Below, piece by piece: positions 509-5,446 of a DNA stretch of 5,446 bases. How positions within the stretch are numbered: position 1 is the first letter of the stretch; each line of letters opens with the position of its first letter. Both the position numbers and the translations under genes were made by a program. The notes under the pieces were generated by a model that saw nothing but the letters and a program-made list of their open reading frames with translations, was not told the origin of the DNA and made no database searches. Origin of the DNA: a virus; IMG/VR virus record IMGVR_UViG_3300045988_071232, positions 1-5,446 of that record, one strand, 5' to 3'.

Positions 509-537
509 AATTATACATCAAATAAATCAAAATGTCA
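509..537 (-). promoter_or_regulatory. Perfect consensus sigma70-type promoter on the minus strand: -35 TTGACA (537..532), 17-nt spacer, -10 TATAAT (514..509). An AT-rich UP-like tract lies at 538..566.
   Basis: Read directly on the minus strand: CTTCTTGACATTTTGATTTATTTGATGTATAATTAAATT. It begins immediately after the VP1 stop and sits about 30 nt upstream of the ORF63 SD. Confidence 0.6.
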
Positions 538-566
538 AGAAGTAAATCAAAATAAATCTAAAAATA

Positions 567-2258
567 TTAATGATGATCTATTAAACCTGGTATACTAAAT
601 ACAGGCATAGGACGAGTACACAGATTTTTAATATAAAAATCACCGAAAAACTGATTAGCAACAGAAGACGTAACAGCTAACGCACGATCTACATTAGTCT
701 TATCCTCAACGATCCACTCAGGAGAGAGCTTAGGAAGATCAGAATAATCGTCAGCCAAATGCCAAGCATCAAGAGATTTCTTCGATAAAGAACGCATTTC
801 AGCACACACCCTATTAGGTTTGTACCGGTAATCTGCCCATGCTTCTTGATAACCAAAAACGCCATCATCAGCAGCCGTACCTTTTGCAAAAATTTCACGA
901 TTATATACAGGCTGCTCGCCAATATTGGCCAGCGACGGCCAATAATAATCAAAGCGAGTTTTACGGCTAAAGAAACGTTCAATACCGCACTGATACGTAT
1001 GATCATAACGCGCCACACAAAGACCGATCAAAAATCCATGTTCAACGAACGACTGCGTAAAATCCGAATGAGTGTCAACGGTCAAAGAATAAGCGGTAGT
1101 AGTGCCCTGAGGAGTCGTCGCCGATTCAGAATTCTGAACGACCTGATTAACATTAATTAACATACGATTTCCGCCAAGGTACTCCGGGCGCTGGAGCCTA
1201 CTATCAGGGGAAGTAACGCCGAAATGATTAGACAAAATTTCAATATACCTCGTACCACCTCGGGCATCTTTCTCATATATCCTCTGAATTTGAAAAGCCA
1301 AGCGCAATTGATTAATAGTAGCAGCAGTCGCCTGTGTTAAATCCGTCCACAAATTAGAAGGATAAATATCAACACCATCGCCACTATTGCTACCAGCATA
1401 AGTAAGAGAAGAATTATGAAACTTAGCAGCATAATCGCCGATGATAGAAGAATTATCATTAGCATTCCTAAACATCAAAGAAGATGGCTTACCATTAGAA
1501 TCAAGAGACCACTCAGGCCTATGATCATAACTAACTAAATTACCAGTATTACCACCATATACAGGGGCCTGATTACCTAATGGCAATAATACATCAGGAC
1601 CTTTTTGAGGTGATGGAAGACAAGAGGTAAAATAATCTCTAAACTTACCAGCCTTCAAAGGATAACCACCTCTCACGGCCTGAAAAAGACCGGAAGAATC
1701 GTTAGAACCAGCAGTAACATCATCACCTAAAGGAATAGACTGAGGAGTCTGAAGACTTTCATCACGAAACCACTCATTATATATCAAAGCATAAGCACGA
1801 AAAGGAAGAGCAGAAACAGAAAGCTCACCAATATAAGGAGGAATACCCATATAATCGGCTATAGTACCTTCAGCCCAACCGAATTGAGAACTACCACCAC
1901 CAGAACGAACCGGAGAAGTAACCTGAGGAACTGAATACTCGACCTCCGGAAACCAAGGAGCAGAAGTATTTTCGCCCATCATCTCTCGCCAATGCTCCCA
2001 TACCAGACGACAAGGAACGAAAAAATAATACGTATCGAGATAAATATTATCCATCACAGGAGTAACAAGGGTCTGCAAGCGGATAAGCTTAGAAGTATCT
2101 ATCTGAAACGTATCACCAGGAAGAACCTCATCACAATAAAAAGGAATAAGGTCACCAACATTGCCAGAAAGTTTAACACTATGCGAACGATCAAACCTCG
2201 AACGCTGTATATCAACTTGCGGATTTTTAGAAAAATGTGAATTCTGATTCCTATTCAT
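567..2258 (-). CDS. VP1: Major capsid protein VP1 (F-like) of Microviridae/gokushovirus type, 563 aa.
   Basis: The N-terminal signature is ...RSRFDRSHSVKLSGNVGDLIPFYCDEVLPGDTF... The conserved stretch INQLRLAFQIQRIYEKDARGGTRY follows a Ser/Asn/Gly-rich variable loop. SD GGAGG lies 8 nt upstream. There is an 8-nt overlap with the VP3 stop (ATGAATAG). Confidence 0.93.
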   Translation of the reverse strand: MNRNQNSHFSKNPQVDIQRSRFDRSHSVKLSGNVGDLIPFYCDEVLPGDTFQIDTSKLIRLQTLVTPVMDNIYLDTYYFFVPCRLVWEHWREMMGENTSAPWFPEVEYSVPQVTSPVRSGGGSSQFGWAEGTIADYMGIPPYIGELSVSALPFRAYALIYNEWFRDESLQTPQSIPLGDDVTAGSNDSSGLFQAVRGGYPLKAGKFRDYFTSCLPSPQKGPDVLLPLGNQAPVYGGNTGNLVSYDHRPEWSLDSNGKPSSLMFRNANDNSSIIGDYAAKFHNSSLTYAGSNSGDGVDIYPSNLWTDLTQATAATINQLRLAFQIQRIYEKDARGGTRYIEILSNHFGVTSPDSRLQRPEYLGGNRMLINVNQVVQNSESATTPQGTTTAYSLTVDTHSDFTQSFVEHGFLIGLCVARYDHTYQCGIERFFSRKTRFDYYWPSLANIGEQPVYNREIFAKGTAADDGVFGYQEAWADYRYKPNRVCAEMRSLSKKSLDAWHLADDYSDLPKLSPEWIVEDKTNVDRALAVTSSVANQFFGDFYIKNLCTRPMPVFSIPGLIDHH

Positions 2259-2760
2259 TCAAAGTACCTCCATTTCCACTAGACGAATTACCATCGTTAT
2301 TACTGCCGCTATTATTAGAGCTATTAGCTGCCTTTTTCTTAGATCCTTCGGCAGCAGTAAATTTATCAAACTTCTCAAGAAATTCAGGCGTTCCGGCTTG
2401 CCGCCAGAATTCAACAGGGGAATTATTGAAAAGATCTCTGAGTCCGGGGGGTAAGTCATTAAAACTATTCTCAGCGTCTTTAACATACTCATAAATATCA
2501 GCAAGAGTCTTAGGAGAATCAACAATATCCTCATATACACCTTGAACCTTGTTAAGAGCAGTCTCATCACCTTGGGCATAGCGCTGTAAAAGGACAGAAA
2601 GCTCTACAGACTCTCTGTGAGACTGAATCTCCTCATACCTATTATTAACACCAGACACAACAGGATTACCATCATCATCAACGGTATATACTTCATATTC
2701 TTCACGTCCAGACTCACATATAAATCTTTCATGATCATCAAATTGGGTACGATAATCCAT
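2251..2760 (-). CDS. VP3: Internal scaffolding protein VP3-like, 169 aa, with a Ser/Asn/Gly-rich C-terminal tail.
   Basis: Motifs FDDHERF, LQRYAQGD and P.EFW are typical of the gokushovirus scaffold family (Chlamy_scaf-like). The start overlaps the upstream stop as TAATG. SD GGAGG lies 9 nt upstream. Confidence 0.75.
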   Translation of the reverse strand: MDYRTQFDDHERFICESGREEYEVYTVDDDGNPVVSGVNNRYEEIQSHRESVELSVLLQRYAQGDETALNKVQGVYEDIVDSPKTLADIYEYVKDAENSFNDLPPGLRDLFNNSPVEFWRQAGTPEFLEKFDKFTAAEGSKKKAANSSNNSGSNNDGNSSSGNGGTLNE

Positions 2761-2999
2761 TATAAAGTACCTCCATCACAAACAAGCTCAATAGTAGGAC
2801 AAAGAACTATCTCACCAGTAGCAGAATCAAACTCACCAAGCTTATAAAGCTTAAAATCACTCTTATTAGCATTAAACAAAGAGCCTTCGGCCGTTATAGC
2901 ATGGGTAAAATTCCTAACAGCTGTATAATCATTAACGTCCTGAGTAACCTGAAGATAACCCACTTTCTCATCTTTCATAGTATATAAACCATATTTCAT
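2760..2999 (-). CDS. Hypothetical protein, 79 aa (MKYGLYTMKDEKVGY...). Its position is analogous to gokushovirus ORF5/VP5, but no similarity is asserted.
   Basis: The preferred start is the ATG at 2999..2997, with SD AGGAGG 9 nt upstream and an ATGA overlap with the stop of the 33-aa basic ORF. The ORF track extends it to the ATG at 3020, which has no SD. Its stop overlaps the VP3 start (TAATG). Confidence 0.55.
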   Translation of the reverse strand: MKYGLYTMKDEKVGYLQVTQDVNDYTAVRNFTHAITAEGSLFNANKSDFKLYKLGEFDSATGEIVLCPTIELVCDGGTL

Positions 3000-3097
3000 A
3001 ATCTTATTCCTCCTCTCCATTCTCCGGGTTTAACATTAATTTGCTTGGTCTTGCCAGCCGTGCGAGAAAAAACTCTCTTATCTTTACACCTACTCAT
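2996..3097 (-). CDS. Small basic protein, 33 aa (MSRCKDKRVFSRTAGKTKQINVKPGEWRGGIRL), a candidate J/ORF8-like DNA-binding packaging protein. It is absent from the ORF track because it is under 60 aa.
   Basis: Translated by hand from the minus strand. It has 10 Lys/Arg against 2 acidic residues. Its ATG lies 11 nt after the VP4 stop. Its stop TGA overlaps the next ATG (ATGA). A small, very basic J-like protein is expected in Microviridae. Confidence 0.5.
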   Translation of the reverse strand: MSRCKDKRVFSRTAGKTKQINVKPGEWRGGIRL

Positions 3098-3108: not shown

Positions 3109-4137
3109 TCATACTTTACTCCTTTCTTTAAGATGGCCAAGACGATTAATAAGAGTATCCTCCTCTATGGCCAACATTTCCAGATAACTAAGATCTGTTC
3201 TTTTTAACTTATTAGTTTTAACCTTCTCTGCGACAAACTGCCTATTTAATTTTATAGCAGCCATATCAGAAGGATACTCTACGTCATACAATCTATCATA
3301 ATACCTTGGTGGCTTAAAAGATCTACCACCAACAGAAGTTGACAATAAAATCTTATCATAATCATATATCTTATCCTTATTATCATCGTAATAATAACGA
3401 GCAATACCAGGATCACGAGACATACGAACAAAAGGGGGATAAATACCTAAGTCCTCATATATCTCAGAAGACTTACCTTTAAGCTTCTTAGTAACATAAC
3501 GAGCCACATAGCAACAAGTATCCCATGAACACTCAGCAAGAACAGCATGACCACGCTGCTGCCAAGCCTTATCAATAGTAGGAGAATTATATAATATTTC
3601 TCCACGAAAATTAGTTTTATATATCTTAAGATCATTAAGATGAAGACCAAAAATAATAACATGATAATGAGGTCTATGAGTCTCGTCACCATATTCACCA
3701 CAACCAAAAAAACGAATCTTCTGACCTGTATTCTTTCGCAAGCGTTTCATAAAAGAAGAAAGTTCGTCCTTATTAAGCGATACAATAGGAGAGGGGACTA
3801 TCTCTCCGGTATCACAATTTACAAGTTCATGACGATCAGGAAGATGATCATCATCATAAGTTAAAGTTAAGAACCAATTCTCATCATGATACTGAGCTTC
3901 AAGCATGCAACGATTAGCCCAGTCACGAGCATACTGCAAACGACATTCAATACACTGTCCGCAAGGAATTTCAATAAATTCAGAAACGTAATCACCGAAA
4001 GGAACACCTTGCAGAGCATGCCAATGATCACCATCAAAGCGAACAAAATCAATAGCATATGAAACAATCTTATATTTAGGTTTACCAGAATCAGGCCAAA
4101 TACCTACAGGAAAACCTTTTAAAGGATGTTTACACAT
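3109..4137 (-). CDS. VP4: Replication initiation protein VP4 (rolling-circle HUH endonuclease), 342 aa from the ATG at 4137. The ORF track used a TTG at 4167.
   Basis: The N-terminus reads MCKHPLKGF, and a Cys cluster CGQCIECR is present. The motifs are FLTLTYDD (motif 1), HYHVIIFG (HUH motif 2) and CCYVARYVTKK (catalytic Tyr pair, motif 3). Stop is TGA at 3111..3109. Confidence 0.92.
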   Translation of the reverse strand: MCKHPLKGFPVGIWPDSGKPKYKIVSYAIDFVRFDGDHWHALQGVPFGDYVSEFIEIPCGQCIECRLQYARDWANRCMLEAQYHDENWFLTLTYDDDHLPDRHELVNCDTGEIVPSPIVSLNKDELSSFMKRLRKNTGQKIRFFGCGEYGDETHRPHYHVIIFGLHLNDLKIYKTNFRGEILYNSPTIDKAWQQRGHAVLAECSWDTCCYVARYVTKKLKGKSSEIYEDLGIYPPFVRMSRDPGIARYYYDDNKDKIYDYDKILLSTSVGGRSFKPPRYYDRLYDVEYPSDMAAIKLNRQFVAEKVKTNKLKRTDLSYLEMLAIEEDTLINRLGHLKERSKV

Positions 4138-4138
4138 T

Positions 4139-4309
4139 TTAAAAACCTTCGAAAACTTCTTCAACAAGATAAAAATCTATACCACGATCAGATGCAGCTT
4201 CATCAAGATCAGCATAAAAATCATCAGAAGCAACGTCATAATCACTATAAAAGTGAAAAGTTATATAATCATCTTTATACACATCATACAAACTAACAAG
4301 ATAATCCAT
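4139..4309 (-). CDS. Small highly acidic Asp/Tyr/Phe-rich protein, 56 aa (MDYLVSLYDVYKDDYITFHFYSDYDVASDDFYADLDEAASDRGIDFYLVEEVFEGF). It is absent from the ORF track because it is under 60 aa.
   Basis: Translated by hand. SD GAGGTG lies 5 nt upstream of the ATG at 4309. Stop TAA at 4141..4139 ends 1 nt before the VP4 ATG. It has about 16 Asp/Glu against 2-3 basic residues. Confidence 0.5.
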   Translation of the reverse strand: MDYLVSLYDVYKDDYITFHFYSDYDVASDDFYADLDEAASDRGIDFYLVEEVFEGF

Positions 4310-4398
4310 AATAACACCTCATAGCCGGAAAAAACGGCAAAATTCATATTAATAATATACGCTATAAACGTTTAATAAGTGTTTTAAATTCAATAAAT

Positions 4399-4427
4399 AT
4401 TTTAATATTATTCTAAAATAAATACAA
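4399..4427 (-). promoter_or_regulatory. Candidate sigma70-like promoter for the acidic-ORF/VP4 operon: -35 TTGTAT (4427..4422), 17 nt, -10 TAAAAT (4404..4399).
   Basis: The hexamers and spacing were read on the minus strand in the AT-rich intergenic region just downstream of the terminator-like hairpins. The AT-rich context makes chance matches likely. Confidence 0.3.
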
Positions 4428-4442
4428 CGTCAGACTACTTTT

Positions 4443-4498
4443 TTTCAAAAAGGTGTCAGTCAGCCCAGTTACATCAAGAGGGTAACTGGGCTGACTGA
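4443..4498 (-). terminator. Perfect 17-bp stem (4456..4472 with 4482..4498) and a 9-nt loop. On the mRNA strand it is followed by CACC-TTTTT-G-AAAAAAA. This is a candidate intrinsic terminator after VP2 and/or an ssDNA origin hairpin.
   Basis: tcagtcagcccagttac / atcaagagg / gtaactgggctgactga was read directly. The T tract is complementary to 4447..4451. Confidence 0.45.
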
Positions 4499-4500
4499 TG

Positions 4501-4524
4501 CACTGTCCTATTTATAGGACAGTG
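4501..4524. other. Second perfect hairpin: a 10-bp stem (cactgtccta / taggacagtg) with a 4-nt loop ttta. It lies 4 nt after the VP2 stop.
   Basis: Read directly. It is separated from the first hairpin by only 2 nt. Confidence 0.6.
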
Positions 4525-4528
4525 TACA

Positions 4529-5137
4529 CTACTTTTTAAATAAAGAACTAATAAAGTTCGCAAAAGGTTGACCAATATACTTCTGATAACCTTGATATAC
4601 TGAACCAAGCAAGGAGAAAGGACTTGAAGGAAAGTCACGCTTACTTGCATAAGACTTATTAGAAGCATACCGGGAAGCACTACTCGAAAGCGTTGAACCT
4701 AAAATAGAAGCGACGGAGCTACGATCTGCACCATACCGGGAAGCAGCAGCGCTCATAGAAGCAGAACCGAGCATAGCATTAGCACTAATCTGTGCGGCAT
4801 TAATCTGTGTAGCAGAAGAAATAAGAGACTGGAGATAACCAGCTATAGCAGAAGAATAAGACTCATCAACTTTACCAGATTTACCGGTAGCGGTGGCACC
4901 GGAAGGAGTAGCAGCTCCTTGTCCACCGGTAGATAAAATAGGGTTAAGACCGGCGGCGATCAAGTCTTTAACCTCTCTTTGATGGGCCGTATTGGACATA
5001 TTCTCTTGCCAAGAACGAGTAAGAGCAGCCTGTTCAGCATTAAAAGCCATCTCCTCACGTGCGAAAGCCTGAGACTGCGCCGTATTCGCTGCAGAGCTCT
5101 CTTTGATGGAATTAAGTAAATCGTCATACATTGCCAT
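4529..5137 (-). CDS. VP2: Minor capsid / DNA pilot protein VP2, 202 aa.
   Basis: The conserved N-terminal region reads ...AFNAEQAALTRSWQENMSNTAHQREVKDLIAAGLNPILS. A long Ala/Ser/Gly-rich low-complexity region follows. SD GAGGTG lies 5 nt upstream of the ATG at 5137. Stop is TAG at 4531..4529. Confidence 0.82.
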   Translation of the reverse strand: MAMYDDLLNSIKESSAANTAQSQAFAREEMAFNAEQAALTRSWQENMSNTAHQREVKDLIAAGLNPILSTGGQGAATPSGATATGKSGKVDESYSSAIAGYLQSLISSATQINAAQISANAMLGSASMSAAASRYGADRSSVASILGSTLSSSASRYASNKSYASKRDFPSSPFSLLGSVYQGYQKYIGQPFANFISSLFKK

Positions 5138-5223: not shown

Positions 5224-5418
5224 TCATAGTAGGAGCAGCAGCAGGATCAAGGCCATGACGCTCAAAAAAAGAGGTATATAAGCGTTAAACCAAGCGCAAA
5301 CGTCGCTAACATCCAAACTGATGTGAAAACCTTCAAAAGTATAATAACGGCAGAAGATGGAGTCCTCCATCTCCTGCTGAACTTCATCAAGAAATTCAAA
5401 AAACAAATCATTATTCAT
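5224..5418 (-). CDS. Hypothetical C-tail-anchored membrane protein, 64 aa from the ATG at 5418. It has an acidic N-terminal domain and a C-terminal hydrophobic segment AWFNAYIPLFLSVMALILLLLLL ending at the stop codon.
   Basis: The ORF spans the circular junction, and its start lies in the terminal repeat (equivalent to 67..65). SD GAGGT lies 6 nt upstream. Stop TGA is at 5226..5224. The ORF track's first M is a TTG. Confidence 0.5.
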   Translation of the reverse strand: MNNDLFFEFLDEVQQEMEDSIFCRYYTFEGFHISLDVSDVCAWFNAYIPLFLSVMALILLLLLL

Positions 5419-5446
5419 CAAAATACCTCAAAAGCCTAAAAAAAAC
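5352..5446. repeat. Second copy of the terminal redundancy (= 1..95).
   Basis: Exact 95-nt identity with the window start. Confidence 0.9.

Follow-up and report, generated by a model that had tools for sequence, protein, structure and literature searches.

A conserved, covarying stem-loop as a candidate rolling-circle origin in gokushoviruses

The intergenic region between VP2 and VP4

The window, meaning the whole 5,446-nt stretch of DNA analyzed here, is a complete circular gokushovirus genome of 5351 nt with 95 nt of terminal redundancy, and all of its genes are carried on the minus strand. One of these, VP4 (3109–4137, minus strand), codes for the rolling-circle replication initiator, which matches PF23343 and phrog_942 and displays the motifs FLTLTY, HYHVII (HUH) and YVARYVTKK (YxxxY). 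In VP4, the window itself specifies a cognate HUH Rep of superfamily I whose active site is YxxxY. The VP2 ORF (4529–5137, minus strand) terminates in ...SSLFKK-stop, with its stop codon at 4529–4531, and the largest gap on the coding strand that lacks an ORF of at least 40 aa stretches from there to the region upstream of VP4 (4310–4528). The part of this gap lying between the hairpins described below and the small ORF/VP4 is an AT-rich non-coding stretch (4310–4432, minus strand) that is near-invariant across five close relatives and is likely to be a promoter or regulatory region. Elsewhere in the genome, a perfect sigma-70-type promoter is found at 538 to 510 on the minus strand. A scan of the entire window with the Rfam 15 covariance models returned no match at E≤1.

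The remainder of the gap is occupied by a structured block, in which the original prediction had described twin perfect hairpins and a 10-nt direct repeat; all of these elements were recovered at the coordinates predicted. Hairpin 1 (4456–4498, minus strand) is a 17-bp perfect stem, whose arms at 4456–4472 and 4482–4498 are 100% complementary, closed by a 9-nt loop (4473–4481) that reads CCTCTTGAT on the coding strand. At its 3' foot lies a TGACACC box (4452–4458, minus strand), the TGAC of which starts 16 nt after the TTG of the loop, and whose first three bases double as the base of the stem in the window genome. On the coding strand, hairpin 2 (4501–4524, minus strand), an accessory hairpin, starts 4 nt past the VP2 stop codon, and 2 nt separate it from hairpin 1, which lies 3' of it. 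Its 11-nt arms (4501–4511 and 4514–4524) are 100% complementary with 2 nt between them, which in practice amounts to a 10-bp stem with a 4-nt loop. As DNA, hairpin 1 folds with −19.0 kcal/mol (z −9.1) and hairpin 2 with −8.7 kcal/mol (z −7.4), while the 121-nt block has a z of about −10 on either strand. No perfect short-range inverted repeat in the whole window is longer than these two, and both hairpins are far above the chance level.

A weak third hairpin (4433–4457, minus strand), of the form GACACCTTTTT-gaa-AAAAAGTAGTC, has 9 of 11 positions paired and folds with −4.4 kcal/mol (z −1.9). Its 5' arm contains the TGAC box and its 3' arm corresponds to the left copy of the direct repeat. It is unchanged in the loci L001–L004, which also retain hairpin 2. 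Counted by eye, roughly 30 of 82 loci have a short hairpin whose 5' arm is made by the TGAC box. In general, the stability of this downstream hairpin is not significant by window-energy percentile, 7% of the loci placing it in the top 5%. In our proposal, both the weak third hairpin and hairpin 2 play an accessory part in an origin region, where hairpin 2 may assist Rep loading or the priming of the complementary strand.

The direct repeat itself is an exact 10-nt match, ACTACTTTTT, present on the plus strand at 4434–4443 (left copy) and 4528–4537 (right copy); as had been pointed out in the original prediction, the right copy doubles as the VP2 C-terminus, taking in the final codons of VP2 along with its stop. 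The close relative L002 lacks this right copy and L001 has it with one mismatch, although each of them possesses both hairpins. About nine separate 10-mer direct repeats spaced by no more than 150 nt occur in the window, and at least one such repeat arises in ~10% of 251-nt regions simulated with a first-order Markov model. The repeat thus looks like a chance-level, incidental feature. A role for it as a conserved closing helix was considered and rejected on the same two counts, namely its loss or decay in L002 and L001 and its chance frequency.

A single-copy stem-loop conserved across gokushoviruses

A blastn search with the intergenic region matched 317 Microviridae records. Among the matches listed, coverage was limited to about 4426–4513, and in most of the matched records this region is unannotated. 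Outside the intergenic region, the genome was matched in 17 records, and there only in patches of VP1 and VP4. A covariance model of the hairpin gave a match at E≤0.05 in 79 of 83 gokushovirus loci, with a single top match in each genome. Three weaker matches among these 83 loci also seem genuine, and a further 21 of 22 loci were matched as well. The window's own match spans 4448–4503 on the minus strand (58.9 bits, E 3e-11). Since the seed sequences were chosen with a filter for TTG...TGAC plus a hairpin, the invariance of these bases inside the seed alignment is partly by construction, and the independence of the case comes from the first blastn search and from the matches outside the seed. 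The loci matched by the model include ones not used as seeds, as well as Chp2, phiMH2K and SpV4, with modest E-values for Chp2 (0.013) and phiMH2K (5e-4), where the box takes the variant forms TGAT and TCAC, respectively.

The stem is variable in sequence, and each of its 12 modelled pairs has undergone compensatory changes on both sides. Covariation across the stem scores 0.51, as against 0.05–0.09 when the partner is slid, and none of 500 shuffles reached 0.51; a plain MAFFT alignment gave the same result. The original prediction had held the structure to be functional and had named compensatory changes in relatives as the evidence to look for. That evidence is strong for hairpin 1 and weak for hairpin 2, which shows one compensatory pair, in L002. 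The conserved sequence is strand-specific and consists of a pyrimidine-rich run followed by C-T-T-G-(A/T)-T in the loop, with CTTG being present in 76 of the 76 distinct motif rows kept, and of a TGAC that follows the TTG at 16 nt, or at 17 nt in a few loci. The exact pattern CTTGWT-N14-TGAC occurs in 56 of the 83 gokushovirus loci, against an expectation of 0.03 per genome. The window has a second exact match inside VP1 (750–773, minus strand), which lacks a hairpin and is common only to the window, L001 and L004; across all loci there are three independent extra matches of this kind, where ~2.5 are expected by chance.

The usual place of the element is 15–650 nt upstream of VP4. Six loci have it ahead of VP1, and it comes after VP4 in SpV4, after VP3 in Chp2 and after Vp5 in phiMH2K. 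In L005–L010, the hairpin ends ~6 nt before the VP4 ribosome-binding site (AAGGAG, followed by the VP4 start codon). Such a position suits a cis-acting element of the genome and not a gene-specific signal. Phages with hosts as different as Chlamydia, Bdellovibrio, Spiroplasma and gut bacteria share its CTTG...TGAC signature. In hairpin 1, the window has its own version of a stem-loop that nearly all gokushoviruses carry, single-copy and ancestral to the subfamily; the "twin hairpins" of the window are an ordinary, expected part of a replication region and no oddity of one genome. The motif is undescribed in the literature that we searched, and an earlier mention, for instance in the original phiMH2K and Chp2 papers, is possible.

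As a separate matter, the TGACA within the box resembles a sigma-70 −35 hexamer. This candidate was rejected by eye, there being no consistent −10 element at 16–18 nt, and the position and orientation of the element relative to the genes vary.

Likeness to mapped nick sites and a predicted VP4 cleavage site

We know of no experimentally defined origin for the Gokushovirinae, which are among the most abundant single-stranded DNA phage groups in gut and ocean viromes. We propose, with a probability of roughly 0.7, that hairpin 1 and, at its 3' foot, the TGACAC box make up the VP4-nicked rolling-circle viral-strand (double-strand) origin. The loop of hairpin 1 presents, on the coding strand, the nick-site consensus CTTG↓AT(A) (the arrow marking the cut), and the TGAC supplies a second conserved box at a fixed distance 3' of it. 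CTTG↓ATA is the mapped nick site of both the phiX174 A protein and the pC194 Rep. The window, Chp2, phiMH2K, SpV4 and most loci carry the motif on the coding/deposited strand, and in three isolates the deposited strand bearing it is also the coding strand; by Microviridae convention, the deposited strand is presumably the encapsidated one.

By analogy with the phiX174 gene A protein, VP4, as a two-tyrosine HUH endonuclease, would recognize the stem-loop, either extruded or single-stranded, along with the TGAC box. It is predicted to act on hairpin 1 by cutting the coding strand in the loop at CCTCTTG↓AT, that is, between G4475 and A4474 of the minus strand, and would become covalently joined to the resulting 5' end, with the 3'-OH being extended by the host polymerase. 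After one round, VP4 would cut and re-ligate the regenerated site, thereby freeing a circular single strand for packaging.

The 30-nt viral-strand origin of phiX174, which lies in gene A and reads CAACTTG↓ATATTAATAACACTATAGACCAC, offers the closest point of comparison. It shares with the gokushovirus element the CTTGAT after a pyrimidine-rich run, on the viral strand of phiX174 and the presumed viral strand of the gokushovirus, a GAC at an equal offset (18–20 nt after the TTG), and the presence of one origin copy per genome alongside a cognate two-tyrosine HUH Rep. The strict gokushovirus pattern has no match in phiX174. CTTGWT-N15-GAC, which is that pattern loosened by one base (the T of TGAC to N) after inspection of the phiX174 origin, has exactly one match there, at 4302–4325, coinciding with the annotated origin of viral-strand synthesis at 4306. 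The phiX174 site differs in being inside the Rep gene, with an AT-rich spacer and no hairpin, whereas the site in the window is intergenic, with the 3' arm of a covarying stem for its spacer and with its predicted nick site in the loop. As the phiX174 origin is not a hairpin, the likeness rests on ~9–10 shared positions; for the same reason, the structured model misses it, with a best score of 8.9 bits in phiX174 as the negative control, and the linear pattern alone finds it.

The double-strand origin of the pC194/pUB110 plasmid family, TTCTTTCTTATCTTG↓ATAATAAGG, likewise has a pyrimidine run followed by CTTGAT(A) and is served by a Rep of the same superfamily, but it differs in its plasmid context and its other flanking binding sequence, and has neither a TGAC box at the gokushovirus spacing nor a long covarying stem. 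A nick in a hairpin loop is familiar from IR-II of pT181, which is flanked by IR-I and IR-III, and from the nonanucleotide stem-loops of CRESS-DNA viruses. These origins share with the gokushovirus element the nick site in the loop, neighboring inverted repeats and the combination of a variable stem with a constant loop, yet their loop sequences and Rep lineages are unrelated, so the likeness is one of working and not of membership. For pC194, the published origin contains TCTTATCTTGATAATAAG (PMC7072734). Within the Microviridae, the roodoodoo- and reekeekeeviruses carry conserved intergenic hairpins next to Rep that show compensatory substitutions and are of unsettled function (PMC9865509). 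These belong to different clades and are likened here to hairpin 1 by description, the portion of that report drawn upon mentioning no CTTG/TGAC signature (PMC9865509).

That a conserved, covarying stem-loop should hold constant the very bases of the phiX174 nick site yields a precise prediction, namely that VP4 cuts at CTTG↓AT. If the element is the viral-strand origin, it ties together the origins of Bullavirinae and Gokushovirinae, the two subfamilies that have been studied best, and would also supply a rational zero coordinate for circular microvirus genomes and the cis element for gokushovirus phagemids or replicons.

Alternative functions and the orientation of the motif

Three functions had been put forward for the block in the original prediction, namely complementary-strand priming, termination and insertion, and none of them is the best-supported one; hairpin 1 is probably neither a terminator nor an inserted element. 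A conserved, strand-specific hairpin could instead be a complementary-strand origin or a packaging signal. In the former case, the hairpins would act as those of G4 and phiX174 do, recruiting host primase, PriA or RNA polymerase to the SSB-coated virion strand. The part of this idea that stands is the presence of stable intergenic hairpins on the virion strand, a clustered arrangement shared with the G4 primase origin and the phiX174 n' (PriA) site, and 45% of the loci have an additional very stable hairpin directly 5' of hairpin 1, the place taken by hairpin 2 in the window, against 5% expected. In rolling-circle plasmids, the single-strand origin is typically just upstream of the double-strand origin. 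Negative-strand priming has also been suggested for hairpins upstream of Rep in other microvirus clades (PMC9865509). What fails is the fit of the conserved bases: the CTTG(A/T)T loop and the TGAC box match a Rep nick site, as at the viral-strand origin, and not n'. The comparison of the intergenic region with phiX174 gave short matches at chance level, none of them significant in the F-G intergenic n' region. Moreover, host priming signals should track the host, yet CTTG...TGAC is constant across diverse hosts, and inverting just the single-strand origin would be lethal, while a viral-strand origin can be inverted self-consistently. We hence regard a complementary-strand origin as an unlikely explanation of hairpin 1. 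Such priming stays reasonable for hairpin 2, and both functions could reside in one cluster.

Likewise unlikely is an intrinsic (rho-independent) terminator ending the VP2 message, with the RNA hairpins followed by CACC-UUUUU. The hairpins do start 4 nt past the VP2 stop codon, a run of five T's lies 3' of hairpin 1 on the coding strand, several clades have four T's after the box (e.g., GACAGCTTTT), and a transcript running from the promoter at 538 to 510 through the small ORFs and VP2 could need an end there. However, the T-run begins 4 nt after the stem, where a terminator would have its U-tract within 0–2 nt of a G+C-rich stem, and a consensus scan makes no call for hairpin 1 on the coding (minus) strand. 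Nor is the T-run conserved in relatives; in L005–L010 the corresponding tail is the VP4 ribosome-binding site. The gene upstream of the element differs between genomes (VP2, VP3, Vp5 or VP4), six loci have the element ahead of VP1, and termination leaves unexplained the invariant CTTG loop, the near-fixed spacing of the TGAC and the agreement with the phiX174 origin. In the window genome, partial termination may nevertheless be a secondary role of the hairpin.

A small palindromic insertion of the MITE or REP kind, with the 10-nt repeat as its target-site duplication, is rejected as very improbable. The block is indeed bracketed by the exact repeat, but repeats of such size and spacing are common in this genome, the right copy is missing or mismatched in loci that have both hairpins, and the left copy is accounted for by the weak third hairpin, whose 3' arm it forms. 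The element is furthermore single-copy in each genome, no terminal inverted repeats were seen by eye, and hairpin 1 is subfamily-wide with a varied stem sequence. That the hairpin is an XerCD/dif-like attachment site, of the sort used for lysogeny by enterobacterial gokushovirus prophages, can scarcely be credited either: some gokushoviruses do integrate at dif (PMC7062461) and the stems of several relatives read GCACATAT, which is loosely XerC-arm-like, but the window has no match to a dif-like 28-mer with up to 3 mismatches allowed, its arms are separated by 9 nt (8–15 nt overall) against 6 nt between the 11-bp arms of dif, variable arms with a conserved loop and flank are the reverse of a recombinase site, and dif motifs occur only here and there in the subfamily (PMC7062461), unlike the near-universal hairpin motif.

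The element also exposes a clade with a possibly reversed encapsidated strand. In eight genomes forming this clade (L045, L046, L055, L058, L061, L085, L086 and L089), the whole motif is oriented opposite to all genes. With the motif on the non-coding strand, the viral-strand origin model implies that the non-coding strand would be the one packaged. Tentatively, and with considerable reservation, we raise the further possibility that the stem-loop is the ancestral Microviridae origin, homologous to that of phiX174, and that its orientation sets which strand is encapsidated; if so, these eight genomes would be the first negative-sense microviruses, packaging the non-coding strand.

Gene layout and the hairpin block

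The window is a gokushovirus (Microviridae) sequence, the first 95 nt of which are repeated exactly at its end (1-95 = 5352-5446), indicating a circular genome that is complete at 5351 nt, with ends that overlap in the assembly. The minus strand carries all its sizeable ORFs: the major capsid protein VP1 (567-2258; PF02305), the scaffold VP3 (2251-2760), ORF5/VP5 (2760-3020), the replication initiator VP4 (3109-4137/4167; PF23343, phrog_942) and the pilot protein VP2 (4529-5137). The coding strand is the reverse complement of the window and, by family convention, the virion strand. VP4 displays the motifs FLTLTY, HYHVII (HUH) and YVARYVTKK (YxxxY), as in the phiX174 A-protein superfamily.

Every element listed in the original prediction is present at its given position. 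Hairpin 1 (4456-4498, minus strand) has a perfect 17-bp stem and a 9-nt loop; hairpin 2 (4501-4524, minus strand) formally has 11 bp and a 2-nt loop, in practice 10 bp and a 4-nt loop; and the direct repeat ACTACTTTTT occurs at 4434-4443 and 4528-4537, its right copy overlapping the last VP2 codons (FKK-stop). Both hairpins are far beyond chance: their DNA folds reach -19.0 kcal/mol (z -9.1) and -8.7 kcal/mol (z -7.4), respectively, the whole block has a z of about -10 on both strands, and the two are the top perfect short-range inverted repeats genome-wide.

Conservation and covariation of hairpin 1 across gokushoviruses

A sensitive blastn search of GenBank phages with 4300-4560 as the query matched 317 Microviridae records, and among the matches listed coverage was restricted to ~4426-4513, mostly in unannotated stretches; the rest of the genome found matches in 17 records only, confined to patches of VP1 and VP4. 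We then compared 80 IMG/VR genomes, picked by VP4 similarity alone (30-98% identity), together with the cultured isolates phiMH2K, Chp2 and SpV4. Many of these contain a hairpin with a genome-specific stem sequence, the loop of which consists of a pyrimidine-rich run followed by CTTG(A/T)T. On its 3' side is found (A/G)(C/G)TGAC(A)(C/G), the TGAC box, starting 16 nt (in a few loci 17 nt) past the loop TTG. A covariance model, R1, built with 42 of the comparison loci as seeds, recovers a single top match per genome at E<=0.05 in 79 of the 83 gokushovirus loci, including many non-seed loci and all three isolates; three weaker matches also look genuine, and 21 of 22 further loci were matched.

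All 12 modelled stem pairs show two-sided changes. In the model-fitted alignment 81.6% of the cells pair, as against 26-42% with the partner slid, and the covariation score is 0.51 versus 0.05-0.09 when slid, a value reached by none of 500 shuffles; a plain MAFFT alignment leaves this picture unchanged. On these grounds the stem is clearly conserved and covarying in relatives, which the original prediction had proposed as the check on a functional role, and hairpin 1 is a subfamily-wide element. As the R1 seeds were preselected by a filter for TTG...TGAC plus a hairpin, part of the invariance of these bases within the seed alignment follows from the selection; independent support comes from the initial blastn search, from the non-seed matches, whose loops all contain CT(T/A)G, and from the C preceding the TTG, which is invariant without having been selected for. 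The strict pattern CTTGWT-N14-TGAC is present in 56 of the 83 loci (0.03 expected per genome), and the number of extra matches over all loci is what chance predicts. A second exact match in the window (CTTGATGCTTGGCATTTGGCTGAC; 750-773, minus strand), inside VP1 and without a hairpin, is common to L001 and L004 only, two of the loci closest to the window.

The element, i.e., hairpin 1 with the TGAC box, is usually situated 15-650 nt upstream of VP4 (311 nt in the window), ending ~6 nt before the VP4 ribosome-binding site in L005-L010 and ~35 nt before the VP4 start in L033; it precedes VP1 in six loci and lies just after VP4 in SpV4. The gene preceding it is VP2 in the window, VP3 in Chp2 and Vp5 in phiMH2K. 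This varied context fits a genome-level cis element rather than a signal tied to VP2.

No Rfam family corresponds to the element, most matching GenBank records leave its region unannotated, and it is undescribed in the searchable literature, including the enterogokushovirus paper (PMC7062461) and the global microvirus survey; an earlier mention in the original Chp2 and phiMH2K papers, which lie outside that scope, is possible. For roodoodoo- and reekeekeeviruses, one account reports other hairpins upstream of Rep, with their function unsettled (PMC9865509).

A putative rolling-circle origin and its inverted form

In the phiX174 record, the viral-strand origin is annotated at nt 4306, within ccccCAACTTG|ATATTAATAACACTATAGACCACC. 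Upon alignment on CTTG, the constant gokushovirus positions coincide with this origin: both have C-T-T-G-A-T at the nick, a 5' flank rich in pyrimidines and, at offsets 18-20 past TTG, GAC. Both the phiX174 A protein and the pC194 Rep are established to nick at CTTG|ATA. The strict pattern has no match in phiX174, because the latter has an A at the gokushovirus T of TGAC; a one-base loosening to CTTGWT-N15-GAC, chosen after the phiX174 origin had been inspected, yields exactly one match on either strand, at 4302-4325, which is the origin (0.12 expected). The pC194 plasmid origin likewise reads TCTTATCTTGATAATAAG (PMC7072734).

Given the HUH and YxxxY motifs of VP4, the match to the phiX174 origin and the likeness to that of pC194, hairpin 1 with its TGAC box is most likely the rolling-circle (viral-strand) origin. 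Whereas the conservation, the covariation and the phiX174 match are direct results, its cleavage by VP4 and its origin activity are inferred, with the nick predicted at CCTCTTG|AT (minus strand, between 4475 and 4474). The element would work like the phiX174/pC194 class of origins, with which it has constant bases in common, but differs from them by presenting the predicted nick site within the loop of an intergenic hairpin whose stem covaries, an architecture reminiscent of the origins of pT181 and the CRESS-DNA viruses. Any phage that replicates by rolling circle needs an origin, so the element is ordinary as biology; its use is that the gokushovirus origin becomes directly testable.

In L045, L046, L055, L058 and L061 the motif is opposite in strand to VP1, VP2 and VP4 (e.g., L045 4613-4667 and L055 2052-2108, both minus), and the L045 VP4 led to three more such genomes (L085, L086 and L089). 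All eight genomes sharing 61% or more VP4 identity with L045 have the inverted orientation, and at least in L045, L046 and L058 a stable hairpin adjoins the motif on the same strand; in L087 and L088, the next relatives (51% identity), the motif has the usual orientation. Inversion of a viral-strand origin would be self-consistent, since it would simply switch packaging to the other strand; the same does not hold for a priming site inverted on its own. This pattern mildly favors a viral-strand origin over the complementary-strand priming proposed earlier, and raises the possibility that the eight-genome clade comprises microviruses packaging the non-coding strand.

Hairpin 2, termination and the flanking sequences

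Hairpin 2 is kept in the five close relatives (the window and L001-L004; VP4 94-98% identical), with one compensatory pair in L002 (CCTAT/ATAGG to CCCAT/ATGGG) and one C-G to T-G change in L003/L004; its sequence was not found in relatives beyond these. In 45% of 82 loci, the 34 nt directly 5' of the putative origin stem are in the top 5% of same-genome windows for stability, and the "twin hairpin" layout is thus recurrent. Candidate roles for hairpin 2 are complementary-strand priming, Rep loading and insulation of the upstream gene.

Partial termination at hairpin 1 may occur in the window genome, and is kept as a candidate because a perfect TTGACA-17-TATAAT promoter, 538->510(-), would direct transcripts through VP2 toward the hairpins. 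However, the coding strand continues after hairpin 1 as CACC-TTTTT-G-AAAAAAA with the T-run starting 4 nt from the stem, this tail varies among relatives, and a consensus terminator scan did not call hairpin 1 on the coding strand; termination of the VP2 message, as first proposed, is therefore not its conserved function. The sigma-70 consensus promoter (510-538, minus strand; 12/12) closely follows VP1 and precedes a small ORF (287-478), which suggests that the host uses canonical sigma-70 promoters and that a transcript extends across the small ORFs and VP2 in the direction of the hairpins. The small ORF 5224-5421 contains a near-perfect 13-bp hairpin, GCAGGAGATGGAG-GA-CTCCATCTTCTGC (minus strand, 5350-5377 and 1-24), which was flagged as terminator-like and has no clear T-run.

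The idea of an inserted palindromic element flanked by direct repeats is rejected, as the repeat is within chance (~9 separate 10-mer repeats spaced <=150 nt in the genome, and such a repeat in ~10% of trials with a simulated region of like composition) and its right copy is absent in L002 and mismatched at one position in L001. The repeat is best treated as incidental. On the coding strand, a weak third hairpin, GACACCTTTTT-gaa-AAAAAGTAGTC (z -1.9), has the left copy of the repeat as its 3' arm. Its 5' arm contains the TGAC box, a layout paralleled, by eye, in roughly 30/82 loci; in the minimum-energy fold the right copy can pair with the same T-tract, closing a three-way junction. Between L002 (~1240-1300) and the window (4525-4560) the VP2 C-terminal sequence differs and similarity resumes at hairpin 2, so that the edge of the hairpin cluster marks a boundary of either recombination or divergence.

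A 56-aa ORF (4139-4309, minus strand), very acidic and Asp/Tyr-rich (MDYLVSLYDVYKDDYITFHFYSDYDV...), abuts the VP4 start on the upstream side; it has no Pfam or PHROG match, and its start region is kept in L001-L004. The AT-rich non-coding DNA that separates this ORF from the hairpins (4310-4432) is almost invariant among the five close relatives, a conservation exceeding that expected of spacer DNA, and includes a small GCCG-TTTTTT-CGGC hairpin (~4322-4335) just before the ribosome-binding site of the ORF.
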